A stretch of DNA of 64,000 bases from NCBI RefSeq assembly GCF_058153355.1, contig NZ_CM177019.1; one strand, given 5' to 3'. Below, one piece after another: positions 7,475 to 64,000 of this stretch; within the stretch, counting starts at the first letter, position 1; each line of letters starts with the position of its first letter. The notes under the pieces were generated by a model, which was not told where the DNA came from, searched no databases, and saw nothing but the letters and a program-made list of their open reading frames with translations. A program made the translations under genes and the position numbers.

Positions 7475-7478
7475 CGTC

Positions 7479-7893: not shown

Positions 7894-9210
7894 TTACGCG
7901 AATGCCGCCATGCTGGCTTTCATGGTGTACACCTCAACCAGCGTGTTGGTGTACTCCTCCAGATAACGGTCGTAGTTGGCGTTATAGGTATCGGTAAGCT
8001 GATCGCCTTCGTCCTGAATTTTGCTCATCTGATCGTCAATGTTCTGCTGGCGCAGGGTGATGATGCCGTTGCTGGAGTCCGTGTAGGTGTTAATCAGGTC
8101 ATCCATCTGCGCCACCATGCTGTTGTCGCCAACGAAAATAGAGGTCAGACCGTCAGGATTTTTCGCCATTTCGTCGTTGAACTGGTCGGAGTCAATCTGT
8201 AAGTGGCCGTGAGAATCAAGCGTGATGCCATAGTCAACAATCGACACCCCGTTGTAGCTGGCATGGGCGATATCATCGAGCTGGTTCGCCAGTGAGCTGA
8301 GTCCGGCGTCACCCGCAAATACCCCGGCGCTGGTACTGTCATCACCGTGGGTGGTCAACGAATCAACCGTATCAATCAAGGTGTTATAGGCATCAACAAA
8401 GGTCTGTACTTTCTCCTGGCTGGCGCTGGAATCTTCGCTGATGTTAAAGGTAGTGAGATCGCTGTCAGAATCGCTGACTTCGGTGAAAGTCATGGTGACG
8501 CCGGGGATCACATCATCAAAGGTGTTGCTGCTATTGGTGATCTCTGGCCCCGTGGCGCTGCCGAGATGAATAATCGCGTCCTGAGCGGAGGAAACATCCG
8601 TGGCAACGGGCGCGCTGGCGCTGTCGTTGCTGGCGTCATGCCCCGTTACGCTCACCGAAAATGCGCTCTGCGCCCCGGTGCTGTCCGAGGTGAGCATAAT
8701 GGTGGTGGTGCCGTCGGTTTTCACCAGCGCCGCCGACACACCTGGATTGTCATCGGAGTCGTTAATCGCATTCACCAGCTCGCTGGCGTCGATAAAACCG
8801 TCGCCGTCACCGTTCTGATCCGCCGCCGACAGATCAATATCCATGGTGCTGTCGCCCATCGTCAGTTCAAAAGTGCCGGTAGCGGAAAAGGCGTCGTCGC
8901 CCATACTGAACGTGGTCTGCTGCCCCTGCGCCAGTTGCTCAACATAAAATGAGTAGCTTCCCGCCTGCGCCTGCGAGTTAGCGGACACGGTCGCCGAGTC
9001 ATTATTGCTGGTGGCGGCAAACGTTACCGGGCCGTCGGTATCGCTGTTCAGCGCATCGACGGCACTTTGAAAATCGCTCAACGCCGAGCTGAGCGTATCC
9101 AGGCCGCTGCTTTCGGCATCCAGCTCCGTTTGCTTTTCCTGCAAATTTGCCGCCTGAGTGGCGACATCCGCATAAGCGATTTCCTGGGCAATAGTTCTTG
9201 GGTTAATCAT
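7894..9210 (-). CDS. lafB: FliD-like filament cap protein (HAP2)
   Basis: 438-aa ORF with FliD-like N- and C-terminal regions and Ser/Thr/Asp-rich centre. Confidence 0.8.
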   Translation of the reverse strand: MINPRTIAQEIAYADVATQAANLQEKQTELDAESSGLDTLSSALSDFQSAVDALNSDTDGPVTFAATSNNDSATVSANSQAQAGSYSFYVEQLAQGQQTTFSMGDDAFSATGTFELTMGDSTMDIDLSAADQNGDGDGFIDASELVNAINDSDDNPGVSAALVKTDGTTTIMLTSDSTGAQSAFSVSVTGHDASNDSASAPVATDVSSAQDAIIHLGSATGPEITNSSNTFDDVIPGVTMTFTEVSDSDSDLTTFNISEDSSASQEKVQTFVDAYNTLIDTVDSLTTHGDDSTSAGVFAGDAGLSSLANQLDDIAHASYNGVSIVDYGITLDSHGHLQIDSDQFNDEMAKNPDGLTSIFVGDNSMVAQMDDLINTYTDSSNGIITLRQQNIDDQMSKIQDEGDQLTDTYNANYDRYLEEYTNTLVEVYTMKASMAAFA

Positions 9211-44953: not shown

Positions 44954-45192
44954 GAGGATATCCTTCAGCATAAATGTAATAGACAAAATGCAGTGTACCG
45001 GATACCGCCAAAAGCGAGAAGTACGGGCAGGTGCGATGACCAGGACTTTTTGACCTGAAGTGCGGATAAAAACAGCAACAATGTGAGCTTTGTTGTAATT
45101 ATATTGTAAACACATTGCTAAATGTTTTTACATCCACTACAACCATATCATCACAAGTGGTCAGACCTCCTACAAGTAAGGGGCTTTTCGTT

Positions 45193-47637
45193 ATGATGAT
45201 TTTGAGTATTCTCGCTACGGTTGTCCTGCTCGGCGCGTTGTTCTATCACCGCGTGAGCTTATTTATCAGCAGTCTGATTTTGCTCGCCTGGACAGCCGCC
45301 CTCGGCGTCGCTGGTCTGTGGTCGGCGTGGGTACTGGTGCCTCTGGCCATTATCCTCGTACCGTTTAACTTTGCGCCTATGCGTAAGTCGATGATTTCTG
45401 CGCCGGTATTTCGTGGATTCCGTAAGGTGATGCCACCGATGTCACGCACTGAAAAAGAAGCGATTGATGCAGGCACTACCTGGTGGGAAGGCGACTTGTT
45501 CCAGGGTAAGCCGGACTGGAAAAAGCTGCATAACTATCCGCAGCCGCGCCTGACCGCAGAAGAGCAAGCGTTTCTCGACGGCCCGGTAGAAGAAGCCTGC
45601 CGGATGGCGAATGATTTCCAGATTACTCATGAGCTGGCTGATTTGCCGCCGGAGCTGTGGGCGTACCTTAAAGAGCATCGTTTCTTCGCGATGATCATCA
45701 AAAAAGAGTACGGCGGGCTGGAGTTCTCGGCTTATGCCCAATCTCGTGTGCTGCAAAAACTCTCCGGCGTGAGCGGGATCCTGGCGATTACCGTCGGCGT
45801 GCCGAACTCATTAGGCCCGGGCGAGTTGCTGCAACATTACGGCACTGACGAGCAGAAAAATCACTATCTGCCGCGTCTGGCGCGTGGTCAGGAGATCCCT
45901 TGCTTTGCACTGACCAGCCCGGAAGCGGGTTCCGATGCGGGCGCGATTCCGGATACCGGGATTGTCTGCATGGGCGAGTGGCAGGGCCAGCAGGTGCTGG
46001 GGATGCGACTGACCTGGAACAAACGCTACATTACGCTCGCGCCAATTGCTACCGTGCTTGGGCTGGCGTTTAAACTCTCCGACCCGGAAAAACTGCTGGG
46101 TGGTGCAGAAGATTTAGGTATTACCTGTGCACTTATCCCGACCACCACGCCAGGCGTGGAAATTGGTCGTCGCCACTTTCCGCTGAACGTACCGTTCCAG
46201 AACGGACCGACGCGCGGCAAAGATGTCTTCGTACCGATCGACTACATTATCGGCGGACCAAAAATGGCCGGGCAAGGCTGGCGGATGCTGGTGGAGTGTC
46301 TCTCCGTGGGGCGCGGCATCACCCTACCTTCCAACTCAACCGGCGGCGTGAAGTCGGTGGCGCTGGCAACGGGCGCGTATGCGCACATTCGCCGTCAGTT
46401 CAAAATCTCTATCGGTAAGATGGAAGGGATTGAAGAGCCGCTGGCGCGTATTGCCGGTAATGCCTACGTGATGGATGCTGCGGCATCGCTGATTACCTAC
46501 GGCATTATGCTCGGTGAAAAACCTGCCGTGCTGTCGGCTATCGTTAAGTATCACTGTACCCACCGTGGGCAGCAGTCGATTATTGATGCGATGGATATCA
46601 CCGGGGGTAAAGGCATTATGCTCGGTCAGAGCAACTTCCTGGCACGAGCTTACCAGGGCGCACCGATTGCCATCACCGTTGAAGGGGCCAACATTCTGAC
46701 CCGCAGCATGATGATCTTCGGTCAGGGAGCGATACGTTGCCATCCGTACGTGCTGGAAGAGATGGAAGCGGCGAAGAACAATGACGTTAACGCGTTCGAT
46801 AAACTGCTATTCAAACATATCGGCCACGTCGGCAGTAACAAAGTTCGCAGCTTCTGGCTGGGCCTGACGCGCGGTTTAACCAGCAGCACACCAACCGGCG
46901 ATGCCACTAAACGCTACTATCAGCATCTTAACCGCCTGAGCGCCAACCTCGCCCTGCTTTCTGATGTCTCGATGGCGGTGCTGGGTGGCAGCCTGAAACG
47001 TCGCGAACGCATCTCGGCACGTCTGGGTGATATTTTAAGTCAGCTTTACCTCGCCTCTGCCGTTCTGAAGCGTTATGACGACGAAGGCCGTAATGAAGCC
47101 GACCTGCCGCTGGTGCATTGGGGCGTACAGGATGCGCTGTATCAGGCTGAACAGGCAATGGACGATTTACTGCAAAACTTCCCGAACCGCGTGGTTGCCG
47201 GGCTGCTGAATGTGGTGATCTTCCCGACCGGACGCCATTATCTGGCACCGTCTGACAAACTGGATCATAAAGTGGCGAAGATTTTACAAGTGCCTAACGC
47301 CACCCGTTCACGTATTGGTCGCGGTCAGTACCTGACGCCGAGCGAGCATAACCCGGTTGGTTTACTGGAAGAGGCGCTGGTGGATGTGATTGCCGCCGAT
47401 CCGATTCATCAGCGGATCTGTAAAGATCTGGGTAAAAACCTGCCATTTACCCGTCTGGATGAACTGGCGCACAACGCGCTGGCAAAGGGGCTGATTGATA
47501 AAGATGAAGCCGCTATTCTGGTGAAAGCTGAAGAGAGTCGTCTGCGCAGTATTAACGTTGATGACTTTGATCCGGAAGAGCTGGCGACGAAGCCGGTAAA
47601 GTTGCCGGAGAAAGTGCGGAAAGTTGAAGCCGCATAA
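45193..47637 (+). CDS. fadE: Acyl-CoA dehydrogenase FadE
   Basis: 814-aa ORF from [20 protein letters not shown]; the track ORF begins at 45115. Confidence 0.9.
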
Positions 47638-47679: not shown

Positions 47680-48153
47680 TTATTTAAAATTAAAGCCATC
47701 CGGATGATTTTCCAGGCTGCCGGTCAACGCCGCGAATAGCACCGTTTTACCATCAATCGAAAGCGCATCATTCACATTCAACCAGGTGAGTTTCTCTTGC
47801 GAGGTTTTCTCATCAATGGTCGAGAACAGCCCCGTCATCTGATTAGATTTCTCGGACCACATCACAGCGATACGTTGCGAGCCACAGTCATGCGGTTTGC
47901 ACGCGCTCATCACCTGATACGTCTCATCTCCCAATGTCACGGTTTGTGCGGGGGTATAAGTACCGCCTTTCATCACCCAGGCAGGCAGCTTATGCCCTTG
48001 CACCATCTGACTAAACGCAGCTTTGGTGGTTTCGCCCTTTGCAAGGCTGCTAATGGTTAAATCATCCTGCGCCATTGCACTGGTGGCGATGACCAGTGCG
48101 GCGACTGTCGTTATTGCCTTAAACATCATTCCTCCCGAGCTTATCCTGCCCAT
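47680..48153 (-). CDS. ivy: Inhibitor of vertebrate C-type lysozyme
   Basis: 157-aa ORF with signal peptide and conserved CKPHDCG loop. Confidence 0.9.
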   Translation of the reverse strand: MGRISSGGMMFKAITTVAALVIATSAMAQDDLTISSLAKGETTKAAFSQMVQGHKLPAWVMKGGTYTPAQTVTLGDETYQVMSACKPHDCGSQRIAVMWSEKSNQMTGLFSTIDEKTSQEKLTWLNVNDALSIDGKTVLFAALTGSLENHPDGFNFK

Positions 48154-48306
48154 GTTATTAACCTCCTAAAGCCTGGCGATAACACGATAATTTGCAAATC
48201 AGATATTTCCAATATCAGCATTTGTTATCAATTTATTCTGCGCTAAGGCAACTGCCTGATAAGGTGTTAGAGTTATAAAACCCTTCGCATAAAGGAGTTG
48301 TACACC

Positions 48307-49077
48307 GTGCCTGGTTTGAAGATTACGCTTTTACAGCAACCACTGGTGTGGATGGATGGTCCTGCCAACCTGCGTCATTTTGATCGTCAACTGGAAGGTA
48401 TTACCGGACGCGATGTGATCGTTCTACCGGAGATGTTTACCAGCGGCTTTGCCATGGAAGCGGCAGCTTCGTCGCTAGCACAAGATGACGTAGTGAACTG
48501 GATGACAGCCAAAGCGCAGCAGTGCAATGCGCTGATTGCAGGCAGTGTTGCATTACAAACAGAGTCTGGTTCGGTTAACCGCTTTTTGCTGGTTGAGCCG
48601 GGCGGCACGGTACATTTTTATGATAAGCGTCATCTGTTCCGCATGGCAGATGAGCATCTGCATTATAAAGCGGGCAATGCGCGAGTGATTGTGGAATGGC
48701 GCGGCTGGCGTATTTTGCCGCTGGTGTGCTACGACTTACGTTTTCCGGTGTGGTCGCGCAATCTCAACGATTATGACCTCGCCATCTACGTCGCCAACTG
48801 GCCTGCCCCACGCTCTCTGCACTGGCAGGCATTGTTGACAGCCCGCGCGATTGAGAATCAGGCGTATGTGGCGGGATGCAATCGCGTCGGCAGCGATGGC
48901 AATGGCTGCCATTATCGCGGTGACAGCCGGGTGATTAATCCACAGGGCGAGATTATCGCTACTGCCGACGCGCATCAGGCAACGCGCATTGATGCGGAGC
49001 TGTCGATGGCGGTGTTACGGGAATATAGAGAAAAGTTTCCAGCATGGCAGGATGCGGATGAGTTTAGGTTGTGGTGA
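48307..49077 (+). CDS. yafV: Nitrilase-superfamily omega-amidase YafV
   Basis: CN-hydrolase sequence; GTG at 48307 is 9 nt after the AAAGGAG RBS (the track ORF starts at TTG 48298). Confidence 0.85.
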
Positions 49078-49079
49078 GT

Positions 49080-49300
49080 GGGTGTTGTGTTTAGGACCGG
49101 GGAGAGTCGGGGTAAGACTACGAAAGCCCGCTCTCCTGCGACCACTTTTATCATAGGAGTGTGGAAGCGCTTTTCCATCAATTGCGATGACGTCTTTATC
49201 ATTTGATGAATGGCAATCTCGCATCCAGTTAATAAAGCATTCGTGAAATTATACTGAACGGATACAAGACATAACTCTAATTATGGTGCCGTGAACAGGA
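49080..49300 (-). mobile_element. ISAs1-family (H-repeat) transposase remnant, yafF-like
   Basis: Degenerate fragments ([40 protein letters not shown]) homologous to the second remnant at 50800-51340. Confidence 0.65.
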
Positions 49301-49348
49301 TTACCATTTTCAAAATTACGATATTATTTGCAGTAATTATGTTATTAA

Positions 49349-49861
49349 TCATTGTGATATTTCCATCTCTGTGATTAATACCGGATAAGCATTTAATTGC
49401 AGAGTTTGCACGAAATTATCGCAGATAACTGGCAATAACAATAACCCATCAGCCCGCTGCTGTAATACCTCCATTCGTTCTACTGATTCAACATTAACAA
49501 CCAAACCAAGGGCATTTAGCGATTTAAGGATCTCCAGATGTTCACTCATCCAGCGCAGAGAAAAAGGATCATCACCAATTATAAAAACAGGCCCCCAGCC
49601 GGTTAATAACTGGCGTTTCATTACGGAACCAGGATGAAGTCGAGTACATATTACAGGAAATACCCCCTGTTGCGATGGTTCCAATGATGTGGATAATTCA
49701 GAAATATTTTCCATTGTTAGTGAAGAATTAACATCCATTAATAATGGTGAAACAACCTCACTTTCCTTGCTAGTAATGGCTGCACTAATCTGAGAGGAAA
49801 ATAACAATATTATTACGTATAAACTCATTTTTAACATAACAAATTCAATCCGTTTATTCAT
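49349..49861 (-). CDS. Hypothetical secreted protein
   Basis: 170-aa ORF with N-terminal signal-like hydrophobic segment; AT-rich. Confidence 0.45.
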   Translation of the reverse strand: MNKRIEFVMLKMSLYVIILLFSSQISAAITSKESEVVSPLLMDVNSSLTMENISELSTSLEPSQQGVFPVICTRLHPGSVMKRQLLTGWGPVFIIGDDPFSLRWMSEHLEILKSLNALGLVVNVESVERMEVLQQRADGLLLLPVICDNFVQTLQLNAYPVLITEMEISQ

Positions 49862-49927
49862 GTTATAGAATAATGATGCTATAAATCATCATTAATGTTC
49901 AATTATTTAATCACACAGTTTAAAAAA

Positions 49928-50431
49928 TCATTGACCAATGTGAATTGGCAATGTACCACTCAAGTTAAAATCACTGAATATTTTATCAATTTCTCTTGCA
50001 GTTTCTATATATTTAACCTCTTTCGTACTTGCATTATAAATAGCCCAAGCCTCGGGATGGGATGTTCCACCAAACCTTACAAAAAAACTTGATTTCATAT
50101 TATTATATAAATTAACATCAGGAAAAGGATCTTCTCCAAAATTAGTAGTATTGAATAATGAAAGTTCGTATCGCTTAGAAAATTCTGTTGGTAGGATAGC
50201 TTCACTGCCATCAATAGCATTCATCCAGAGTTTGTTACCATTATATTCCAACAATAATCTCTGTTTTGCATGTGTCTTATCTCGTTCTTTAACGACAGCG
50301 AATACCTTTTTAACAACTTGCTGTGCGGATGGTCCTATTGTATTACCAAAAGCTGGCAACCCGATTTTGCCATAAACACTCTCCTGAATAAAATAAATAT
50401 CCGTTTTATCGGCCTCGACAATATCTACCAT
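49928..50431 (-). CDS. Hypothetical protein
   Basis: 167-aa ORF, AT-rich, no recognised motif. Confidence 0.4.
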   Translation of the reverse strand: MVDIVEADKTDIYFIQESVYGKIGLPAFGNTIGPSAQQVVKKVFAVVKERDKTHAKQRLLLEYNGNKLWMNAIDGSEAILPTEFSKRYELSLFNTTNFGEDPFPDVNLYNNMKSSFFVRFGGTSHPEAWAIYNASTKEVKYIETAREIDKIFSDFNLSGTLPIHIGQ

Positions 50432-50799
50432 TTATCCCTCCAAACAAGACCTGACTCCAGGACAAGAGCATAGTGTGTAGTAAACACTTCATGCTCTTGC
50501 CCTGACCATTGAAATAACAACTTTCGTTTGTTTACTGTACGCTGTCTAAATAGCTGCGTGGAATAAAGTTGCACTTTTTATCATCCCTTGCAGAGCAAGA
50601 TTACGAAAACCCGTCTCCGCAAGGACTGACGCGAGGTAGTCTCTGTCCGTAGCTGCTTTCACATCTTACATCTTGCCCCTGCCTTGAGTATCTTATCTTT
50701 CTTTGAAATATTAATAGCGATGTTCCGTATCCCTGAAATAATTCTGCTGCATTTCCTCTTCTTATTTTGAAGTCGTCTTTATTCATTACCACGTCCAGA

Positions 50800-51340
50800 T
50801 GCTAGTGCAATTTATTCTCCACTTGCCAGTGATTTCGGTTCGCTGTGGCGAACTTCTCTGCGGTTAAATCAGCAGAAATGCTAAAATATCTGACCGTCAT
50901 TTCGGGATTTTTCTTTTGTTCTGCTATTATTGAGCGAAATGAGACTGCCATGCATAATTTCTTCAGCCCTTTCCATTCAAACGTAAAATCAATAAATTCA
51001 TCAGGGACATCGCAAATAATATGAAGACGGATTTTAATGACATAAATCGCTCCCTTGCGGCGACTCTTGTCATAAGAGTGCCGAAGCGTTTTTCCATCAA
51101 TTGCAATGACATCTTTATCATCTGAGGAATGGCAGTCACGCATCCAGTTAATAAAGCACTCATGAAATTTTGCAGGACTGATACAGGATACAACTCTGGC
51201 AATGATATCGTGAATAGGAATACCATTTTCAAAATCACCATATCACTTCAAAAAATCGGGATGTGTTTCCCCAAATCCTCTATATCTTCCCAGCCTTATG
51301 CACCAGAAATAACGGCGCAAATAGTTAACAGATAGAATAT
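50800..51340 (-). mobile_element. ISAs1-family (H-repeat) transposase remnant with internal deletion
   Basis: Fragments with [19 protein letters not shown] and C-terminal [11 protein letters not shown] motifs, out of frame. Confidence 0.7.
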
Positions 51341-51683
51341 CTGGCAATTTATGCTCCACTTTCCAGGCTTGCCTGTAATCGGGGATAATAGAAATATGTT
51401 CCATCAATTTTTTAAGTTCCATTTTGTCCCCCTTAATTATGCAATGAGTATTTGATCATGTATAAGCAATGAAAAACAGCTTTAGGTAATAAGGAACACC
51501 TCAATTATTGAACATAAAATGCGAATTATTTAGTACAAAAAAAGCAGCATTAAGTGAGTAGGCCACCGGAACCTCCCCGACAGCCTCTCGCAGAACCGTA
51601 CGTGAAACTCTCGCTTCATACGGCTCCCGTCAGGCAAACGCGCTTCCTGGTCCTGCTTTCCAGTGGGCAAACAACTCCGGCTT

Positions 51684-52955
51684 CTATTTTGACAGCCTTT
51701 CCATTAGCTGACACGCCTTCGTCTTTCTATACCGCAGGGTTTTATATTTCTTTCTCGCCCACGCAATCAGCGTCAGATTAATATATCTGCATACTTTCTT
51801 CATCGCTGATTTGTGGTATCTCGCGTAATAATTCAGCCACCCCGATATTATCGGATTCAGCCACTTCGCAATATCTTCGAGACTCATCTCCACCCTGCGT
51901 CTGATCCACTGTTTCCTGAGTTTTCCAATCATGCCTTTCTGCGCACGGTTACTCGCCGCCGGGCTGAAACTCGTAAAGAGGTTTCCCCGCCGGTGGTTAC
52001 GTGCTCTTCGCGCTCTGAACGTATACCCCAGAAAATCAAACTGCACTGTTTCATGGTTCGCCTGTCGTTCGCTGTCTTTGCAGTAAACTATTTTCGTTTT
52101 CTCCGGATGTAATTCCAGTCCACATTCCTGAAAACGTTTTGCCAGCTTATTCAGTAATTCCTCTGCCTGTTGTTTACTGCCACAATGAATTAATCCATCA
52201 TCTGCATAACGGCACCAGGGAATTTCCGGATAATGTAACGTCAGCCATTTATCAAACACATAGTGCAGAAATAAATTCGCCAGTACCGGGCTGATGACTC
52301 CACCCTGTGGCGTACCTTTATTTCTTTCCTTCAGTGTTCCATCCGGCATCTGCACCGGCGCTGTCAGCCACCGGCGAATAGACAGTCTTACCCATTTATC
52401 CGCACAATGTTTATCTACTGCCCTGAGTAATAAATCGTGGGAGATATTATCGAATAACCCTTTAATATCAAACTCAAGACACCAGTCGTATTGCCAGCAA
52501 CGTTTTCTGGTGACTGCTATTGCATCCAGCGCTGATTTTCCATGCCGGTATCCGTATGAATCATTCAGGAAATAACGCTCCACTAATGGTTCAAACGTTA
52601 CCAGCACCGTCATCTGCGCTATTCGATCGCTTACTGTCGGTATTCCTAAAAGTCTTTTGCTGCCATCCTTCTTCGGAATTTCCACCGCACGCACTGGCGG
52701 CGGCATCCAGCTTCCCGACGATAACCTGTTCCAGATTTTGTACAGATTTCCTTTCAGATCCCGCTCAAAATCTTTCAGCGTCTGGTTATCCACTCCGGCA
52801 GCTCCGGCATTCGCCTTTATCCGCCGGTACGCTTCCACCACATGCAATTTACTGACCTGAAACGGTTTTGTCTGTTCACACACAGCCTCCTCCTGCCTAC
52901 AGTTGGGCTGTGATGCAGACTGCCCGACGCTGTCCCTTCGCTCCACGTTCATTAC
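51684..52955 (-). CDS. Group II intron-encoded reverse transcriptase/maturase
   Basis: RT motifs (LLGIPTVSDRIAQ, YADDGLI) and maturase X region; start set at MNVERRD because the upstream in-frame extension runs into the IS21 terminus. Confidence 0.85.
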   Translation of the reverse strand, partial: VMNVERRDSVGQSASQPNCRQEEAVCEQTKPFQVSKLHVVEAYRRIKANAGAAGVDNQTLKDFERDLKGNLYKIWNRLSSGSWMPPPVRAVEIPKKDGSKRLLGIPTVSDRIAQMTVLVTFEPLVERYFLNDSYGYRHGKSALDAIAVTRKRCWQYDWCLEFDIKGLFDNISHDLLLRAVDKHCADKWVRLSIRRWLTAPVQMPDGTLKERNKGTPQGGVISPVLANLFLHYVFDKWLTLHYPEIPWCRYADDGLIHCGSKQQAEELLNKLAKRFQECGLELHPEKTKIVYCKDSERQANHETVQFDFLGYTFRARRARNHRRGNLFTSFSPAASNRAQKGMIGKLRKQWIRRRVEMSLEDIAKWLNPIISGWLNYYARYHKSAMKKVCRYINLTLIAWARKKYKTLRYRKTKACQLMERLSK

Positions 52956-53153
52956 AAACGCTTCCTCACTACTACGAACAGCTCTGCCCCGGTTTCGCAC
53001 ATCGATACTCTCATACTCATAATTTCGGTTATTTGTATTTCTCTCTTGACATTGCGACGACCGGTTCCCGTAGTTCCTGCAAAGAGCCTGATATGTCAAC
53101 GCCACGATTTTTAACCGTTATTTGCCATTTTCATGCCCGCTAAGATACTTTCG

Positions 53154-55123
<1,970 letters not shown>

Positions 55124-55574
55124 GTTGATGTCCTTTCTGGTGTGGGAACCTTAAGGAAACAACATGTTGGGTGGAGCGGACAATCCAAATGGCGAATTAC
55201 CGTCTTATATCACTGGCGCTGACAGATACAGCGTCATGCCTGCTATACACCGGACACCATTCACGCAGCATTCGGAATTCACCCGTAAATTAATCCCGGC
55301 GGTATCACGAAACCTCCGGTTTTGATGTCACTTAGGACTAACGACGTTTCAACACAGGTTCGGGTTTACTCATCTCACTGTATCTCACATAGGATCAGAT
55401 CTCGTCTGATCGTTCCCCCTGCGCTCACTACCATGGCTCTTTACCACAGCAGCCGGGGTTGTTTGGGACCGACTTCCGACAGCAGATCCCGGTGGGCCTG
55501 CCACCATCTCTTCACAAGCTTATGCTTATTACATGCAAAACGTCCCGTTTTGCATCTTTGTGCCTACGGCACAC

Positions 55575-55899
55575 CGTGATCTTTCCCTGGACTCGATTTC
55601 GGTTTTGAAGGCGCTTCTATGCCCATAATATCCGGCGCTGAGATAAAAAAGCTATGGCACTGCACACAATGTACAACATGCTGGCTATAACTGTTTTTAA
55701 ACCTGTAGCCCTGATAACCAAATTCATTTGCCGGGCGCTCACAGCATGAACATTTTTCCTGAACTATTTCTGGTTCAGTCATATAAGGAGCAACAACATG
55801 AGTCAGTGATTTATATACCAGCTCAACAGGATGAGTTGTTATATCGACTTCGGAAATATTCATATTATTAATTCTCCAGACATTTTTAATTATAATCAA
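55575..55899 (-). CDS. Hypothetical Cys-rich small protein whose 3' end abuts the group II intron 5' boundary
   Basis: ORF with CSCCERP...CVQCH cysteine pattern; reading frame runs into the putative intron start. Confidence 0.3.
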
Positions 55900-56046
55900 T
55901 GATGGTTTTGTGCGAGTAGCAAGAAATTTCTTTATGTTTTTTTCAGGTACTTTAAGACGAACCTAACAATTCCAATGTAAAAATTAATTATCATGCTGAC
56001 TTTAGATCTACATACATCAGCACTGATACTCACTGTAATGAGTGAG

Positions 56047-56649
56047 TTATTTATCATAATTTCTCAATTGCACAGCATCACAAAGATGTTCATTTTTTAT
56101 ATCATACGAATATTCTACTTCACTACCATCATCACATTTTTTTGGCTGTGAAAAAGCATGAATTATAATATTTTCGCCATGAGAGTCGCATTCATTTTGA
56201 AGTATATCCATATCTTCCTGTGAATATGCCTGCATATAACTATATGGATTTTTTAGAATTTCAGACAACGGGAAAACATCCTCTTTCAATGAAATAGAGT
56301 CACCCAATGCCAGTAATTTATAATAATAATCTTTATCACCACCTTCTAAATCCCATGTAAAAAGGAATTGTCCCTCATCCCAGAACACTATTGCATTACG
56401 TTCTCCAGTGGCCCAGTTAAGACCCAGCATACAGAAATTATTTTTTAAATAATTCTTTTTATATAACAATAATAAATATCTTAAAGATTCTTCATAATGA
56501 CTTCTGTAAGGATCTTTCATGGTAACATGAAAGTATGATTCAGGTTTATCCCTAAATATTCCGAAACCGGGGGATTCAGGCAATGGTTTCGATAACGCTT
56601 CACCTGCAAACATGAATAAAACAGACAATATGATACTTCTGATTTTCAT
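56047..56649 (-). CDS. Hypothetical secreted protein (candidate immunity protein)
   Basis: 200-aa ORF with signal peptide MKIRSIILSVLFMFAGEALS; AT-rich; 4-bp overlap with the upstream ORF. Confidence 0.45.
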   Translation of the reverse strand: MKIRSIILSVLFMFAGEALSKPLPESPGFGIFRDKPESYFHVTMKDPYRSHYEESLRYLLLLYKKNYLKNNFCMLGLNWATGERNAIVFWDEGQFLFTWDLEGGDKDYYYKLLALGDSISLKEDVFPLSEILKNPYSYMQAYSQEDMDILQNECDSHGENIIIHAFSQPKKCDDGSEVEYSYDIKNEHLCDAVQLRNYDK

Positions 56650-57566
56650 TTCTTTTTTCTCTGGTTCGGGTCATCAATAAATGACTGTTCCAACCCATAG
56701 AAATCCTGACCAGCCAGACTAAATATTAATTTAAAATTATTGCCAGGGGATGATTTCCCCTGGGTTCTCCAGGCATAAACATCTTTAATATGTGGCAATG
56801 AAGAGTAGAGTTCTTTACCTCTTGCAATATCAATAGAATATTTTATTAACCGCCTATTTTCTAAAAAATATTTATTTTGTCCAATATTAGCGTTCTTAAT
56901 AAGATCATCTATATGGTCATCGACATCTTTTCTTAAACCTGGATAATTACTAAATCCGGCAATAACTCTTTCCACTCTAATCAGTCCCACTAATGTTTTA
57001 TTATTAGAGGGAACATCAAGACGATCAGGGCGAGAGAAAGTAAAACGATTTAATAACGCACGTCGCATATATTGCATTGATTTTATCGCGTCTTTTTCAT
57101 TATACTTTTCCCCACGAGTTAAAGGGGTTTTCGTCTCAGCCAGTAAGACCATTAGCATGGCTCGTTCACTCTCCGAAAGACCATCTGCGAGTGTTTCTCT
57201 TTTTATTTTACTAAGGACATTAACAGTTAAAGTTGGAAAACAATTTTTATATACTCCTCCAACTGTTGCCGGGCAATGCCCCAGATATGCTCCAGATGAA
57301 CTGGCGCTATCATAGGCATGAATGGTAGCGATTCCCAATCCTTTTGCCCGGACAACTATAGTTTGCTCCAGTTGTCCTGTTCTGGAAGACTGCTCAATTG
57401 ATAAAATACCGGGGCGAGATGATGCCAATTTTAGATGCTGACCTTTGGCATCAAACCCTCTTATCTTAATACGAAAAACATCCTTATCAGTCATATAATA
57501 AAAAAATTTATTCAATGCTGTTTTTGAGTCCGAGTTTGGACTAATGAAAATTTCACCATTCGCCAT
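56646..57566 (-). CDS. Hypothetical protein (candidate orphan effector)
   Basis: ORF of about 306-339 aa, AT-rich; start uncertain between 57566 and 57665. Confidence 0.4.
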   Translation of the reverse strand: MANGEIFISPNSDSKTALNKFFYYMTDKDVFRIKIRGFDAKGQHLKLASSRPGILSIEQSSRTGQLEQTIVVRAKGLGIATIHAYDSASSSGAYLGHCPATVGGVYKNCFPTLTVNVLSKIKRETLADGLSESERAMLMVLLAETKTPLTRGEKYNEKDAIKSMQYMRRALLNRFTFSRPDRLDVPSNNKTLVGLIRVERVIAGFSNYPGLRKDVDDHIDDLIKNANIGQNKYFLENRRLIKYSIDIARGKELYSSLPHIKDVYAWRTQGKSSPGNNFKLIFSLAGQDFYGLEQSFIDDPNQRKKK

Positions 57567-57763
57567 TATGTACCTCACAAAAAACAATATAAAAATTGCG
57601 ATAAAGTATTCAATATGTTGATTCCCGTTATTGCAGGTAATATTCCTGCTCAATAAATGCACCAATCACTTTGTCGTGCATTTCTGTGGATTTCGAATAC
57701 CTCAGTGTCTTCCGGTCGAGTCGTTTCAGGCTGTTCCCAGGGCGAGAGCATGCTTTTGCCCTA

Positions 57764-58414
57764 TCACCTAATACAGAATCGATCATCTGAAACATATTCA
57801 CCCATCGCTACCTTATCGCCTAATTTTATTTTTTGCTCCCTGAGTAATCGATTGATATTTCCATCATAACAAAATTTTTTTTGTCTGCTATCAAAATAAT
57901 AATATTCATCCATCATCACTTCAAATTGCTCTCCATTTTGAGGGCCTATATAGCCCAACACACCTTTAATCCATATTTTATCTTCAACATGAGTAAAAGA
58001 TATTTTTTTAAAACCAATGCAAGGAGAGTAATCATTAAAAAAATAACCTTCAAATGGTTTATTTGAGACTATTATTCTTTTATCTGGAGTAAATATAGCA
58101 ATGTTGCATCTCTGAAAATCATCTTGGACAACACCTTTAATTTTATTACTATATACAAACGGTACAATGTAATATCCATTTCCTTTACTTATCTCTCTTA
58201 TTTGATCTTCATATATATATATATTATCATATTTATCTATATGCTTCCGAGTGTAATAGATATAAGAAAGTGGCTCCAAAGCATATTTTTGCTCAACAAA
58301 GCATCTTATTTCCTTCTCAATTTCACTGTAATCAACAGATAACATAGCATAACAATGCGTATAGCAAATTAGCATCAATGTGCTAACACTGCCTCGTATA
58401 ATCAATGACAACAT
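57764..58414 (-). CDS. Hypothetical protein with N-terminal hydrophobic segment (candidate immunity protein)
   Basis: 216-aa AT-rich ORF immediately downstream of the GH19-like gene. Confidence 0.4.
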   Translation of the reverse strand: MLSLIIRGSVSTLMLICYTHCYAMLSVDYSEIEKEIRCFVEQKYALEPLSYIYYTRKHIDKYDNIYIYEDQIREISKGNGYYIVPFVYSNKIKGVVQDDFQRCNIAIFTPDKRIIVSNKPFEGYFFNDYSPCIGFKKISFTHVEDKIWIKGVLGYIGPQNGEQFEVMMDEYYYFDSRQKKFCYDGNINRLLREQKIKLGDKVAMGEYVSDDRFCIR

Positions 58415-59408
58415 TCACCTCCTGCCTATTTCGTGTGATTTGGATAGTCTCTGTTTGCGTGTTAATAACATCATCAGAAAGAAATTTATATGTATATCTA
58501 GAGAATGCTTGCCGCTCAAAATATTGGAAACCACCACCATTTACCAACTTAGAACAAAGACCTATTGATTCTGTATTAATTCCGGAATCACAACATCTAT
58601 TAATATTAACTATTGATGGTTCTTCACTATTGACTCTATATTGTTTAGAAACCCAAAAGAAACCAGCCGAATCAGTTGATAAATATTCACTAGAGGATAT
58701 CATATTAGGGTCATAATAAGGATACCAAATTTTATTTAATGTACCATCAATATAAACCTCCGTTCTCCCTGTTTGTCTGTTTCTTCTTGTTCTTCTTGGA
58801 TCACCCCAATAATGCAAGGAGTCATGTGTTATTCTATTATCTGTATAACTCTCACTCTGATTTAAATTAGAAAGAACCAGATCACTTTGGAATTTTTTAT
58901 ACTCTTCGTAATTACCAGCCCATGTTAATTGCATCATACCTCTACCATAAAACACTTGATAATACTCCATTGCAGGCGCAGTCCAGGTTCCATCATTTTT
59001 GGGATATCCCCGACCAAACTCTGTCATTGTTCGCATCATCGCTGTTTCGGTATATATTTGCCCAAGATATAAACCTTTTCTATTAGCATTAAGAATTAAG
59101 TATTTATTACAGCATCGGTTAAAATGTTTATAGTAGCTCTCCCACCGAGATTTTGCAGATTGAAAAGAAATAGAGTCAGTTTGGGGATCTCCTGGATATC
59201 CAGCATAATAAACGCGAGGTAATAATGACGCAACTTCATCTAAAGCCAGCCATCCACATTTCCTGAAATGGCTAATGAATGTCCTGGGGTCAAAATGCCA
59301 TACTCTTCCTGCGGGTAAATCACCGCTAATGCATAATGCCCTGGCATGAGCCAGAAGTTTATCCCAGTCTGGCCTTTTCATCGGTTTTGCGGCTAAACTC
59401 ATCCTCAC
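58383..59408 (-). CDS. GH19-like (chitinase/lysozyme-family) putative peptidoglycan hydrolase, candidate T6SS effector
   Basis: Motif FYGRGMMQLTWAGNYEEY closely resembles the GH19 signature FYGRGPIQLSWNYNY; downstream of vgrG. Confidence 0.55.
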   Translation of the reverse strand: MRMSLAAKPMKRPDWDKLLAHARALCISGDLPAGRVWHFDPRTFISHFRKCGWLALDEVASLLPRVYYAGYPGDPQTDSISFQSAKSRWESYYKHFNRCCNKYLILNANRKGLYLGQIYTETAMMRTMTEFGRGYPKNDGTWTAPAMEYYQVFYGRGMMQLTWAGNYEEYKKFQSDLVLSNLNQSESYTDNRITHDSLHYWGDPRRTRRNRQTGRTEVYIDGTLNKIWYPYYDPNMISSSEYLSTDSAGFFWVSKQYRVNSEEPSIVNINRCCDSGINTESIGLCSKLVNGGGFQYFERQAFSRYTYKFLSDDVINTQTETIQITRNRQEVNVVIDYTRQC

Positions 59409-60660
59409 CGTCTACCAGAAGCCAGTTAAAACGCTCCTCCAGTGAGGAGGCCTCCCATTCCTGATTGAAATGGCAAATAGCTCGCTGGCAACTACTGGCA
59501 AAATGTTTACTTCCTTTCCAGTTATTTATTGTGTCAGAATGACACTGACTGTCGTGAACAGAGTCATCATCCACCAGTCTCCATCCCATCCAGTGTGGAA
59601 AATCTCCGTCACTGTATTTTTTTATATTCGGATCAGCCAGATTTACCACTCCATGCCCCCCCGGATAATTTACTGTTCGCCAGAGCGGTGCATTGGATGG
59701 CGTCAATACCTCATGTTCACTATTAATCACCCGACCAAAGCGTAATAACTCAAATCCGGAACTGGGTCTCTGCGGATATAACTTCATTGCTGTTTTATAA
59801 AGATTATACTCATATTTATCACCGTCTTTATTAATCAATGCCTCGCCTACAGTTTCATATACATACTCATCTATCTCACCCTCACTCACTTCTTTTTTCA
59901 TTCTCGTCACCATCTCACAGTTTCCAGTATCAAATTTCATAGTAACGAACAACGGAAACATGCTGGTATAAACCGGTGACAAACCAGTGGTTTCAGCACT
60001 GTTATTTTCTGGTATCTTATCGTAGAAAATTGTGTCTACTGGTAAGTAGAAATGTATATCACCATACACAACTTCAGTTCTACCATCTTTTGTCAAATCA
60101 GTTTCTGGTTCCAGTTCTTCTCTACCTGTCAGCTTCTTTGTGTTTTCATCATCACTGAATATCTGGAAATGAAACTCTTTATCGCCATCTGCCAGGCCTG
60201 GTGTCCCTAACACATCCTTTCTGTATATCTTACTTCCCTGAGTCACTCTCCCCTCAATCTCATTCAGGTGCATATACACCGACCAGTATGTAACCTTCCC
60301 GGATTCGCCGTCACCTATTTCCGTTTCGTGTTTTATTACTACACATCCATCATCTGTTGGGCCGTTATAATTAAGCGGTGCTGAATCTCGTTTTTCAACC
60401 GATGAAGGCGTTCGGACATAAACAACTGTTCCGTCTGCAATTGCTCTGATTTTATCCTCTGCATTCGTGTACGAAATATGAATGCCGCCATGCCAGGAGC
60501 CTCGTAAATTTATAGGGTAATTTCTGAACTGATCAACTGGCATCATCCAGTCAATCCATGACTCATCAATCCCACTATTATTGGGATGAGTTAAAAAAGG
60601 AGGGCTAATTATCATTTTTAGTGTACCTTTATTAAAAAAGATAATGTAATGCTGGTACAT
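59359..60660 (-). CDS. Putative T6SS-associated protein with peptidase M23-like motifs
   Basis: 433-aa ORF directly after vgrG; WHGGIHIS and EFHFQIF segments loosely resemble M23 metal-binding motifs; assignment tentative. Confidence 0.35.
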   Translation of the reverse strand: MYQHYIIFFNKGTLKMIISPPFLTHPNNSGIDESWIDWMMPVDQFRNYPINLRGSWHGGIHISYTNAEDKIRAIADGTVVYVRTPSSVEKRDSAPLNYNGPTDDGCVVIKHETEIGDGESGKVTYWSVYMHLNEIEGRVTQGSKIYRKDVLGTPGLADGDKEFHFQIFSDDENTKKLTGREELEPETDLTKDGRTEVVYGDIHFYLPVDTIFYDKIPENNSAETTGLSPVYTSMFPLFVTMKFDTGNCEMVTRMKKEVSEGEIDEYVYETVGEALINKDGDKYEYNLYKTAMKLYPQRPSSGFELLRFGRVINSEHEVLTPSNAPLWRTVNYPGGHGVVNLADPNIKKYSDGDFPHWMGWRLVDDDSVHDSQCHSDTINNWKGSKHFASSCQRAICHFNQEWEASSLEERFNWLLVDGEDEFSRKTDEKARLG

Positions 60661-60681
60661 TATCTGTTTAAATAGTTTTTA

Positions 60682-62718
60682 TTACGAAAATATGAAGTTC
60701 GCAGTCGTATCGTCATCAGCCTCTGGCACTTTCAGCGCCGCCGGTTGCAGCGTCGGCACGGGTGTCCCCGGACTTCCCCCACCGTTCAGGTTTATCTTCG
60801 GCCCCACGATATCCACGCCACCAGAATGAACGACAACGAACGAGCCGCCCACCTTCAGGGTGATTTTACCGCCGCTCTCCAGTACGATTTCATCCCGGAC
60901 CTTCATTCCCAGCGCGCCGGTAATTTTCCTCGCCAGGTCGCCTTTCACCTCCAGACTGTGTTTCCCCTCCACGAGGCTAATGTGGTTTCCTGTCGTCTTG
61001 TGCTCCTGCTTCCCTTCCACCGTCACCTTTCGGTCATTTTTTACATACAGACCGTCATCGTGGCTGACGTTCACCCGCCGGTCGTTCGTCACCTTCAGCG
61101 TCTGGTCATTGCGCACCGTGATGCTCCGGTTGTGGGCCACCGTGATGGTCTGGTCGTGCCCCCCGGCATTCTCTTTCCCCACCGTCACCGTCTGGCCCAG
61201 CCCCACGGTGATTTTCTGGTTGTTCCCGATGGTCTCCGTGTGGTCATGCTTCACGTCCGTTGTCCGGTCGTTGAGCACCTCCGTGTCCATGTTCTTCTGC
61301 GCGTGGATATAGACCTGCTCATTACTGGTGGCGTCCTCGAACCGCAATTCGTTAAAGCCGCTTCCTTTATAGGTCTTCGACCGTATCGTCATCTGCGTCT
61401 TCGTGCCCGGTAAATCCCCCGGTGAACGGTTGTCCTCATGGTAGGTGCGTCCCGTGACGATGGGCTGGTCCGGGTCCCCGTTCAGAAAGTCCACTATCAC
61501 TTCCTGACCCACACGCGGTATCGCCAGATTACCGAACCCCGCTCCCGCCCACGCCTGCGACACCCGTATCCAGCATGAACTCTCCTCCGTCATCCCGTGA
61601 TAACGGTCCCAGTGAAACTTCACCCGCACCCGTCCATGTTCGTCGCAGAATATCTCCTCGCCCTTCGGCCCGGTCACGATGGCACTCTGCGGGCCGTCCA
61701 CCTTCGGCTTCGGTAGCGGCGCGTGACGCCACGTCCTGTCCGCCGGTATCACCTCAAACTGGTTACTCAGCGTCGTTCCTTCACCGTGACTGCCGTGCAG
61801 CGCCTGCGGCTGTTCCCCCAGCAGCGTGCTTCCCACAACCTGCCATTCACGGTTCAGCGTCTCCGCACCACTCCGCCAGCCTTCCGTCTGGTAACGCGCA
61901 AAGTCCTGCCCGTGCTGCTCATCCTTGAAACGCCCCGGATAATCAAATATCTCGTACTGCGTTCCCTGTCCGTTCAGGCTCTCCCCGTCATGGCTGTAGT
62001 ACCCCGGCCACCCCGGCACTTTAAACGTATAATCCTGCGTCTCCACCGACGCCACGCTTATCTGCGCACGGTAACGAAACTCGCTGATGTACTCCGTCTT
62101 TCCCCCGGTCGTCGTGTTCGGGTTAAACGCCAGCGTTCCCATTCCCGTCAGCCCCGCCACGTCATCACACACCGCCAGCTTCTGCTCCGGCCCTTCCTGA
62201 CCGCAGCGCTCATAAAAGAAGATACCTTCCTCCGCCCACAGCCGGGTCAGGAATGCCAGGTCGCTCTCCCCGTACTGCACGCAGAACTCCCGCGCCGGGT
62301 GCGCCTCATAGAACAGCGGCATCCACGCCGTCACCCCGTTCTCTCTCAGAAGCTGTGCTGATATCGTCTGAATGTCCTGCTGCTGGAAGATACGGAAGTT
62401 CTGCCGTAACCCTGCCCGCCACAGCGGCGGGCTGATGCTCAGGGAATAACGCATCTGCCAGTCGTTGTTCTCACCGAGCTGCACCTCCGTCACGATACCG
62501 CTGACGTAACGCTGCGGGATATCACCCTGCCAGACCGTCAGCACCGCGCTCTTCTCCAGAAAATCTTCTGCCGTCAGGTCAGACAGTCCGCTGGCGATAT
62601 CCACATCCAGGATGAACGGTGTGCAGTGGTGCTGGTACAGACGGAAGCTCACCACCGCCGTCGCCATCTCCACAATACCGTCCACCGACAGCGTGAAACG
62701 TAATCCTTCTGAGGACAT
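60682..62718 (-). CDS. vgrG: Type VI secretion spike protein VgrG
   Basis: 678-aa ORF with gp27/gp5-like VgrG sequence and C-terminal beta-helix repeats. Confidence 0.9.
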   Translation of the reverse strand: MSSEGLRFTLSVDGIVEMATAVVSFRLYQHHCTPFILDVDIASGLSDLTAEDFLEKSAVLTVWQGDIPQRYVSGIVTEVQLGENNDWQMRYSLSISPPLWRAGLRQNFRIFQQQDIQTISAQLLRENGVTAWMPLFYEAHPAREFCVQYGESDLAFLTRLWAEEGIFFYERCGQEGPEQKLAVCDDVAGLTGMGTLAFNPNTTTGGKTEYISEFRYRAQISVASVETQDYTFKVPGWPGYYSHDGESLNGQGTQYEIFDYPGRFKDEQHGQDFARYQTEGWRSGAETLNREWQVVGSTLLGEQPQALHGSHGEGTTLSNQFEVIPADRTWRHAPLPKPKVDGPQSAIVTGPKGEEIFCDEHGRVRVKFHWDRYHGMTEESSCWIRVSQAWAGAGFGNLAIPRVGQEVIVDFLNGDPDQPIVTGRTYHEDNRSPGDLPGTKTQMTIRSKTYKGSGFNELRFEDATSNEQVYIHAQKNMDTEVLNDRTTDVKHDHTETIGNNQKITVGLGQTVTVGKENAGGHDQTITVAHNRSITVRNDQTLKVTNDRRVNVSHDDGLYVKNDRKVTVEGKQEHKTTGNHISLVEGKHSLEVKGDLARKITGALGMKVRDEIVLESGGKITLKVGGSFVVVHSGGVDIVGPKINLNGGGSPGTPVPTLQPAALKVPEADDDTTANFIFS

Positions 62719-62934
62719 ATGACCTCCCTTGATTCACTTACAGAACACTGGTTGTCTACTGACCATGCAGCAGAGGGTGCCAGTACAGCGTTACGCTCAT
62801 ATTCAGGTACGCTACCGCCCGGGTTCCCGGCATCCACCATCTCCCTCATGAAAGCGTAACTCCTTACTGACACTCATTTTTTACACGTACAAAAACAACA
62901 TCCTGCACTAAGGCAGGATGTTGTTGACTCAGAT

Positions 62935-63453
62935 TTATGCTTCCAGCGGTGCACGCCAGTCATCGGCACCAGAAGTACCGGATTTGATGTGCTCCCACTC
63001 AACCTTACGGTAGGCCAGTGATACTGCGAGCAATTGCGTAAACTCACGCTGTGCAGGGTCCTGGCAGTGCGGCATATGCAGGTTCATGTCCACAATCGTC
63101 GCGTCAGTAAGACGTGTGGTGAAGTAGTGCTCCTGCTTGCCTTCAACAGAGGTACGCCACCAGTGCAGCTCCACTTTCGGCAGCATTTCACCGGAGGCCA
63201 GCGCGTTGTACAGCAGCGGAACGGCTTTGTTCAGCGCCACGGTGAAAATGAACGGTTTGTGAGCACGCTGCCCGGAAGGCTGACCAGACTGCGGATCGGT
63301 TGGAACAGTAACGTTATGCAGAAACTCCTGCACCAGCATTTCATCTTCGTGTCCCTGCACGTAGATATTGCCGACAGAATCTGCGGTGAAAGCACCGGCA
63401 GTGATGTTCCCCTGGGTCTGACCTGTAATTGAAATGTAACATGGGGTTGGCAT
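62935..63453 (-). CDS. hcp: Type VI secretion tube protein Hcp
   Basis: 172-aa ORF with Hcp-family sequence directly upstream of vgrG. Confidence 0.9.
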   Translation of the reverse strand: MPTPCYISITGQTQGNITAGAFTADSVGNIYVQGHEDEMLVQEFLHNVTVPTDPQSGQPSGQRAHKPFIFTVALNKAVPLLYNALASGEMLPKVELHWWRTSVEGKQEHYFTTRLTDATIVDMNLHMPHCQDPAQREFTQLLAVSLAYRKVEWEHIKSGTSGADDWRAPLEA

Positions 63454-64000
63454 TTATGAACTCCTTGTGAAATTATCAACTGCTGTTTTACGAACAACCC
63501 GTCGTTAATCCCCGACAGGTTAGAGTGTGATGCGGCTCACATCAGGAACCACACCCTTTTCTTTATTCGAGTTACAGGCACACGTAATTAGCACCTACCG
63601 AAAAACTCTTTTATGGTGTTTAAATATATTTTTAGTCAATTTCAGAACACGGTCACATAAGCTAAAAATATATCAACATCAACAGTAGAATTATCCATAA
63701 CGTATCCTCACCCCCATAAAAACCTACAATTTCGTCAAAAATCAATTATTACAACGCTTACTTCACCATCGTTCCGGCACGCAATTAAGATATTCCTTAA
63801 AGGAATTTCTTATGATGTATTGCTAGCAATTAATTAATTTATAAAACCATACATAAAACTTATTAATCAATTTAATAAACACATATAAATCAATGTGTTA
63901 TGGCACTTTATTGGCCGTAAAATTATATTCACCAAGTCTATAAATACCAAATTGATTTCACTAACATGTATTAATAATGAAGGATACATCTCTTTCAAAA

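Follow-up and report, generated by a model that had tools for sequence, protein, structure and literature searches.

The systems closest to the locus presented here are, on one side, the small Hcp-dependent effector modules of type VI secretion systems (T6SS), such as Ssp4/Sip4 and Ssp6/Sip6 of Serratia marcescens and Tse4/Tsi4 of Pseudomonas aeruginosa and, on the other, the transfer modules of conjugative elements. Homologues of Ssp4 are mostly found far from T6SS genes, and sometimes beside hcp/vgrG or inside T6SS clusters (PMC12669606). In plasmids and integrative and conjugative elements (ICEs) of mating-pair-formation type G (MPF_G), the usual gene order is PilL, DUF2275, TIGR03759, lytic transglycosylase, DUF2859, an endonuclease-like gene and TraD. 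The locus under study is a two-gene cassette in a 64,000-nucleotide stretch of an Escherichia chromosome (hereafter the window; contig NZ_CM177019.1 of RefSeq assembly GCF_058153355.1). It comprises a 167-aa open reading frame (ORF) of unnamed family, ORF167, followed on the same strand by a 170-aa DUF2859 gene, and it is bracketed by two copies of the insertion sequence (IS) ISAs1, also known as H-repeat. In the Escherichia T6SS-1 island, whose cargo region is variable, the cassette forms the conserved module at the end of that region. It is tentatively read here as a cargo effector (ORF167) paired with a periplasmic immunity protein (DUF2859), a proposal whose chances are put a little short of even.

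The position of the cassette is the first line of evidence. In matching RefSeq genomes the locus is the distal end of the T6SS-1 island, between aspV and yafV, and related genomes carry a full T6SS-1 cluster there. The core-genome gene yafV anchors the left side of the island; in the window it follows fadE (45115-47637) and ivy (47680-48153, minus strand) and precedes an AT-rich stretch. Hcp (63453 to 62935) and VgrG (62718 to 60682) are encoded upstream of the cassette on the same minus strand. In all the contexts examined for this purpose (the window, N96, LF82, RIVM_C036204, PapM-32-1, and E. whittamii), the cassette lies on the same strand as the T6SS cargo genes and directly distal to them. 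The upstream module is interchangeable, namely Cpe1/Cpi1 in LF82 and RIVM_C036204, Tle1/Tli1 in N96, M23-like genes in the window, and, as another type, a PAAR-like gene with WD40, HEAT, and thioredoxin (Trx) genes, while the cassette keeps its place. The WD40, HEAT, and Trx genes of other strains were looked for in the window and are absent. The GC content is 35.3% in the cassette, 54% in yafV, and 50.9% in the window as a whole. In K-12, which lacks the cassette, the same region has shrunk to aspV-yafT-ykfM-yafU-yafF-yafV.

ORF167 starts at its own ATG, with GGAGGG 4 nt before it, and encodes a soluble protein of 18.9 kDa that has no signal peptide, no transmembrane (TM) or other hydrophobic segment, and no cysteine. 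The protein gives no match in Pfam, NCBIfam, PADLOC, or the PDB sequences. A HMMER scan of 1.84 billion representative proteins retrieved only 31 relatives, one of which is a second Escherichia allele with 68% identity. Most of the others are stand-alone proteins of about 190 aa that align over the full length at 30-40% identity and carry an additional segment of about 27 residues without counterpart in the E. coli proteins. The AlphaFold model (mean predicted local distance difference test score, 81.6) comprises a helix and a C-terminal hairpin in addition to three long beta-strands; no similar solved structure was found for it. There is no remnant of an Rhs core or other carrier at the start of ORF167, as would be expected of an orphan C-terminal toxin domain, and the Rhs and PAAR models give no match. 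Two identities were considered and rejected. ORF167 occupies the position that the lytic transglycosylase has before DUF2859 in conjugative elements, but a divergent enzyme of this type is discarded because the model is beta-rich and not lysozyme-like. Homology with Ssp4 or Tfe1/Ssp3 is excluded by size, fold, and gene order as described, not by sequence: Ssp4 is an all-alpha protein of 35.5 kDa with TM helices, encoded in the ilv locus, and Tfe1 has 183 aa (20.6 kDa) with its immunity gene upstream, while the Serratia homologue of ORF167 is a beta-rich protein of 193 aa (21.9 kDa) with its partner downstream. In the literature searched, no functional study was found for the RefSeq protein accessions of the cassette or for yafV in connection with T6SS, and the Cpe1 paper does not mention the downstream genes.

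The neighbourhoods of the ORF167 relatives are the second line of evidence. In one locus (L006), the homologue begins 16 nt after an orphan hcp and, in a metagenomic contig (L015), it follows tssB-tssC within a complete T6SS cluster. In Serratia (L007), Morganella (L008-L010 and L027-L031), and several metagenomic contigs, the family gene is the first of compact orphan modules of two or three genes, where it is followed by an overlapping or adjacent gene for a protein of about 135-180 aa; at least three of the loci have a DUF805 membrane protein after this partner. Six partners were translated (five downstream ones and the convergent one of L006); by hydropathy all are multi-TM proteins, and a chain of weak pairwise similarities links five of the six. 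A genome scan for related loci found five, four in Morganella and one in E. whittamii. These contexts follow the same pattern as that reported for Ssp4-like small cargo effectors (PMC12669606). They favour ORF167 as the toxin-like partner and not as an immunity gene. No remnant of the four-TM partner gene is detected by tblastn in the cassette. As a separate observation on the metagenomic cluster (L015, 8001-13062), the homologue stands directly after tssC, where hcp often sits, and about nine small genes follow it. They encode, among others, a four-TM protein, several proteins with signal peptides, an amidase-like product of 126 aa bearing Cys/His motifs, and a 275-aa protein whose C-terminus is rich in glycine. 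The whole looks like a dense effector/immunity array.

The second gene belongs to a known family. The 170-aa protein matches PF11072 with 98.9 bits (cutoff 25) and TIGR03765 with 120.8 bits (cutoff 59.75); its better start is probably M9, at 49837, which yields 162 aa and matches the start in the other allele. According to hydropathy and inspection, it has a single hydrophobic segment, located at the N-terminus, which ends in ISA|A and resembles a signal peptide. This predicted signal peptide is followed by a low-complexity linker and, in the model, by a C-terminal thioredoxin-fold domain. The fold is thus that of a thioredoxin, but the CxxC motif expected at the N-terminus of helix 1 is lacking, its position being held by an invariant G-D-D-x-x-S-x-x-W. 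The Escherichia clade is about 45% identical to the rest of the family in this domain and keeps its length and every family-invariant residue (GDDxxSxxW, GLVVNV, and LQLxxYPVLIT), and a repeated motif, PVIC, has brought it two additional cysteines. Sequence-profile searches of the PDB give no match for the family, nor do the PADLOC defence models for the protein itself, and the literature search found no functional study of DUF2859/PFL_4695. With regard to the conjugative modules, a side observation is that DUF2859 always comes after the lytic-transglycosylase gene, whose end overlaps the DUF2859 start (L016, 5842-6348; L017, 5998-6522). At the present locus the gene does not stand in such a module, after a lytic-transglycosylase gene and before traD: genes for TraD, lytic transglycosylase, TIGR03759, PilL, and integrase are all absent near the cassette, both in the window and in the Escherichia contexts opened. 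The displacement of DUF2859 from its normal conjugation context speaks for the reading as an effector-immunity pair.

The pair is conserved and maintained. Of 5,426 complete E. coli genomes, 553 carry the whole cassette, in one copy each and nearly always on the chromosome; LF82, 536, S88, and avian pathogenic (APEC) and uropathogenic (UPEC) strains are among the carriers. Twelve genomes carry a second allele (allele B), about 76% identical to the common one (allele A). Between the two, ORF167 has a ratio of nonsynonymous to synonymous substitution rates (dN/dS) of 0.31 and a dS of 0.58, and DUF2859 has a dN/dS of 0.36 and a dS of 0.39; the dS of yafV is 0.11. Both are real genes under purifying selection, and the alleles are old and co-inherited. 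In E. whittamii, the order is ISAs1, ORF167, DUF2859, ISAs1 stub, and yafV, and the two proteins show 96% and 88% amino-acid identity. In the allele-B strains it is PAAR-like toxin, WD40-like, TIGR02270-like, thioredoxin, ORF165, DUF2859, full ISAs1, an 87-aa ORF, and yafV. About 200 further genomes have a partial match to the cassette, mostly to its DUF2859 half. In SCU-112 (L020, 6790-8408), the one genome of this group that was examined, ORF167 has been lost along with the neighbouring T6SS genes, and DUF2859 carries a frameshift (1-bp deletion) and a nonsense mutation (TGG to TAG). This decay, together with the partial matches, indicates that DUF2859 is apparently not useful alone. The idea that genomes with only DUF2859 hold an orphan immunity gene was accordingly dropped, as the SCU-112 copy is a pseudogene. 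The place of ORF167 and the T6SS genes in this strain is taken by an IS630 remnant, helix-turn-helix regulators, and a large protein of beta-strand repeats accompanied by a type I secretion adaptor.

Taken as an effector-immunity pair, the cassette would work as follows. ORF167 would be made in the cytoplasm without an export signal and, being small enough at 18.9 kDa to travel as cargo of the Hcp tube, would be fired into neighbouring cells, where it would act on the cell envelope of the target. The co-transcribed DUF2859 protein would be exported into the periplasm, both in the producer and in its kin, and would neutralise the incoming ORF167 there. DUF2859 would then be a redox-dead thioredoxin-fold protein recruited from the lytic-transglycosylase/DUF2859 pair of MPF_G conjugative elements. 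The anatomy, families, folds, selection, distribution, and contexts are observed, and it is from these that toxicity, dependence on the T6SS, a target in the envelope, and an immunity role are proposed. The topology fits, with a first gene devoid of signal or TM segment and a second one with a signal-like segment (by hydropathy and inspection), and so does the T6SS linkage, with a locus distal to hcp, vgrG, and cargo genes and homologues placed after hcp and tssBC elsewhere. A more specific version, in which ORF167 is the founding Escherichia member of a new family of T6SS cargo toxins, with a fold unlike that of any solved structure, whose four-TM partner has been replaced by a conjugation-derived DUF2859, is considered doubtful, and clearly less probable than the pair as such.

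Several observations weigh against the effector-immunity proposal. Most members of the ORF167 family are far from any T6SS gene, and seven of the nine non-Escherichia contexts lack an adjacent one; in L005, the 10 kb upstream of the cassette itself contain no T6SS core gene. The usual partner of the family is a four-TM protein and not DUF2859 and, as the E. coli proteins also lack the segment of about 27 residues, the pairing here is atypical. ORF167 shows no recognisable toxin domain. The conservation of all the residues that are invariant in the conjugation family suggests that DUF2859 retains its native activity and has not acquired a new binding role. Finally, the Serratia homologue matches no entry in the table of the T6SS-dependent secretome of S. 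marcescens Db10 (PMC4924876), a strain that may or may not encode it.

Part of these observations would be accommodated if the cassette is hitch-hiking island DNA without any T6SS role, in which DUF2859 would be a relic of an MPF_G ICE and ORF167 an unrelated, non-toxic accessory gene. This explanation, which is judged unlikely, draws on the fact that DUF2859 is otherwise a gene of conjugation modules and has all its invariant residues intact, on the seven contexts without T6SS genes, and on the missing toxin domain. It also agrees with the annotation of the gene by the pipeline PGAP as an ICE protein, a label that misleads because no ICE is present; indeed, in no Escherichia context does any other ICE gene accompany the cassette. 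Against it stands also the persistence of an intact pair under purifying selection, in two ancient alleles and at one fixed position at the end of a T6SS island. Two independent homologue contexts are, moreover, tightly embedded with hcp or tssBC, and DUF2859 decayed in SCU-112 once ORF167 and the T6SS genes had been lost.

A further explanation takes both genes as orphan immunity or accessory genes, ORF167 acting in the cytoplasm and DUF2859 in the periplasm, which would either confer resistance to the effectors of other strains or be relics of a lost PAAR-like module. In allele B and in E. whittamii the pair follows three immunity-like genes in conserved order, 3' of a PAAR-like toxin, and the ends of T6SS islands commonly gather orphan immunity genes. 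The pair is, however, 67-70% identical between alleles, against 25-44% for the three upstream genes, and therefore does not track the PAAR-like toxin. Elsewhere the ORF167-family gene comes first in stand-alone modules with no toxin upstream and immunity-like membrane proteins after it. In addition, the loss of DUF2859 function where ORF167 is lost (SCU-112) is not expected of a protective orphan immunity gene. This explanation is thus regarded as quite improbable. As for the three upstream genes themselves, WD40/beta-propeller, 411-414-aa TIGR02270-like, and cytosolic thioredoxin genes form a trio in L005 (6931-9576), L026 (15456-19809), and L030 (658-4139). The trio is present in allele-B E. 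coli and E. whittamii, with 25-44% identity between versions; the thioredoxin of L005 carries a WCNNC motif, and a 547-aa PAAR-like toxin precedes the trio in PapM-32-1. The three genes may together constitute an immunity or accessory set.

The original prediction, made from the letters of the window, had described two AT-rich genes of unknown function and, as H-repeats are typical of Rhs and vgrG accessory regions, suggested that they may be orphan toxin or immunity cassettes. The genes are as described, including the signal-like N-terminus of the 170-aa product, and the AT-richness is borne out by the GC values given above. Of the two proteins, the 167-aa one is without relatives in Pfam, NCBIfam, or the PDB, and the 170-aa one is not of unknown family, being a member of DUF2859/TIGR03765. 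The vgrG setting agrees with Hcp and VgrG upstream on the same strand, and nothing links the cassette to Rhs. An orphan toxin/immunity cassette is still the best available reading, given the homologues near hcp and T6SS genes, with the qualification that the 167-aa product is disfavoured as the immunity gene.

Table 1. Positions of the cassette and its neighbouring features in the window.
Feature	Coordinates	Strand	Evidence
ORF167, candidate T6SS cargo effector of unnamed family	49928..50431	-	ORF list, family searches, homologue contexts, dN/dS
DUF2859/TIGR03765 (PFL_4695-family) gene, candidate periplasmic immunity protein	49349..49861	-	ORF list, hidden Markov models
yafV (2-oxoglutaramate amidase)	48298..49077	+	ORF list; RefSeq annotation of matching genomes; 96.8% identity to K-12
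Left ISAs1 remnant	49107..49325	-	blastn/tblastn against K-12 H-rpt/YhhI; label given by PGAP in related genomes (ISAs1 transposase, partial)
Right ISAs1 copy, main body	50591..51547	-	K-12 H-rpt mapping; Pfam DDE_Tnp_1_assoc and DDE_Tnp_1 fragments
Group II intron with nested IS21	51548..55574	-	Rfam RF01999 (93.1 bits) and RF00029 (62.8 bits); Pfam RVT_1 and GIIM
Initial 15 bp of the right copy's left inverted repeat (CAGGGAAAGATCACG)	55575..55589	-	Pattern search, sequence inspection

The two ISAs1 copies were compared with a full-length reference, the H-rpt of the K-12 RhsB locus that encodes YhhI, by means of blastn and tblastn. Their claimed homology is confirmed: positions 49129-49324 and 51048-51243 are 81% identical over 196 nt in direct orientation (BLAST E value, 2.5e-51), both copies map to the full K-12 element, and a repeat search recovers the same left and right pair as one repeat family (D1). 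The left copy is a 219-bp stump, in which 49325 to 49129 correspond to element positions 7557-7753 (83% identity) and 49136 to 49107 to the 3' terminus (8497-8526). It is 5'-truncated, with a 743-bp internal deletion, and retains of the terminal inverted repeats (IRs) only the right one (IR-R), directly beside yafV; its internal fragment spans roughly YhhI residues 56-125, and the copy matches residues 56-162 at 54% amino-acid identity. In K-12, yafF represents the 3' 279 bp of an ISAs1 at exactly the same junction with yafV, so the yafV-side insertion is old and common to cassette-free strains. The right copy is better preserved: 51541 to 51035 match element positions 7260-7766 (93%) and 51034 to 50591 match 8079-8525 (90%), with IR-R at 50591. 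A 312-bp internal deletion at 51034/51035 breaks the transposase frame, whose remains cover YhhI residues 1-129 and 234-377 at 79-85% amino-acid identity, with fragments of PF13808 and PF01609. Both terminal IRs are present only in this copy, and an intact transposase frame in neither. Both ISAs1 copies are dead. An undeleted ISAs1 with a 358-aa ORF, 94% identical to YhhI, occupies the position of the right copy in E. whittamii.

The left IR of the right copy is split. Its first 15 bp, CAGGGAAAGATCACG, lie at 55589 to 55575, the rest resumes at about 51547, and a group II intron stands in between; the IS left ends of K-12, LF82, and L005 used for comparison read CAGGGAAAG(A/G)TCA. The end of the right H-repeat had been placed at 51340, which is about 200 bp short, since IS sequence resumes where domains 5/6 of the intron end, at about 51548; that the two copies flank two genes, which are intact and on the minus strand, was rightly seen. 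The intron begins with GTGTGCC at about 55574 and comprises domains 1-4 (55505 to 55388), ltrA (53105 to 51684), and domains 5/6 (51628 to 51553), its ends being accurate to a few nucleotides. An IS21 is nested in it, with istA at 55123 to 53951 and istB at 53954 to 53154. The intron is outside the cassette proper, but it fixes its right-hand boundary. As an observation on its own, strain N96 (L001) likewise has this intron beside ISAs1, and so does strain 82.0311 (L025, 658-2863), there next to another ISAs1 copy. The recurrent adjacency in the three cases suggests that this group II intron homes into the ISAs1 terminal repeat.

Contrary to the initial view, the cassette is not defined by two IS copies: in the allele-B strains no IS separates it from the upstream genes and only the yafV-side IS is present. 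In E. whittamii, an IS sits in the spacer between the homologues of the trio and ORF167, and the ISAs1 away from yafV landed in the spacer between the cassette and the upstream effector module. That the two ISAs1 copies moved the genes to this site as a composite transposon, as the homologous direct copies around an AT-rich segment could suggest, is highly improbable, since the divergent allele has the same locus with the yafV-side IS only, that junction is shared with cassette-free K-12, the cassette occurs once per genome, nearly always chromosomal and beside yafV in every context opened, inspection of the flanking bases reveals no matching direct repeat around the right copy, and both copies are defective. 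Set as direct repeats between the vgrG modules, the ISAs1 copies are probably sites of recombination through which modules are exchanged.

Some features of the surroundings deserve mention. The cargo genes 3' of VgrG in the window (55564-60660, minus strand) are rare, no complete E. coli genome covering at least 80% of 55100-64000. Among their products are a 433-aa protein with a Peptidase_M23 domain and one of 341 aa whose class I chitinase/lysozyme-like match is weak; proteins of 216 aa and 200 aa from the same region have signal-like N-termini and look like products of immunity genes. In K-12, ykfM and the pseudogene yafU (L003, 5258-6085) sit between yafF and yafT, where other strains have the T6SS island, and BLAST finds no nucleotide similarity between them and window positions 48200-56000. 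A promoter and terminator scan gave nothing usefully above chance.

The two genes are already present in hundreds of public genomes, under the labels 'hypothetical protein' and 'integrating conjugative element protein'. Orphan toxin-immunity modules of the T6SS amid IS debris are a well-known kind of locus; the families in both roles would be new. Should the effector-immunity proposal be correct, many phylogroup-B2-type pathogens and commensals (LF82, 536, S88, APEC, and UPEC strains among them) would have a T6SS-1 pair that has gone unrecognised next to Cpe1/Cpi1, which was characterised recently. ORF167 would then stand for a new family of effectors, whose relatives occur in Serratia, in Morganella, in a T6SS cluster from a metagenome, and on further metagenomic contigs. 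DUF2859, conserved in elements of the PAPI-1/ICEclc type, would receive its first functional clue as a periplasmic binder or neutraliser, and a part of a conjugation machinery would have been exapted as T6SS immunity. Should it be wrong, the cassette remains useful for marking, by its stable position, where the T6SS-1 island ends at yafV, and the locus still illustrates how ISAs1 copies punctuate vgrG modules and help to reshuffle them.

The comparison with described systems can be made for each of the components. The ISAs1 copies resemble the H-rpt of K-12 RhsB (YhhI, ISEc1-like) in their nucleotide sequence (83-93% identity) and in their terminal repeats of the CAGGG type; they differ from the H-repeats of Rhs loci in that both are defective, that their setting is a vgrG/PAAR cargo region, and that a group II intron interrupts the left IR of one of them. 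With respect to the MPF_G modules of the PAPI-1/ICEclc type, the difference is that the lytic-transglycosylase gene before DUF2859 is replaced by ORF167. In the F plasmid, the mating-pair-formation gene set includes TraF, a periplasmic protein with a thioredoxin fold but without CxxC, and TrbB, which carries CxxC. DUF2859, which is also predicted to be periplasmic with a thioredoxin fold lacking CxxC, is like TraF by description alone, and it belongs to the MPF_G type while TraF and TrbB are of the MPF_F type. As in Ssp4/Sip4, Ssp6/Sip6, and Tse4/Tsi4, the cassette is a two-gene unit in the order effector-then-immunity, if the roles are as proposed; the candidate effector likewise lacks a signal peptide and would fit the lumen of Hcp, and its candidate partner is also predicted to be located in the envelope. 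Nevertheless, ORF167 has no sequence or fold kinship with Ssp4, being beta-rich and devoid of hydrophobic segments where the larger Ssp4 is all-alpha with TM helices. The pair also differs from the small cargo-effector modules in that it is known from its genes alone and in that the candidate partner is a soluble periplasmic thioredoxin-fold protein instead of a four-TM protein.

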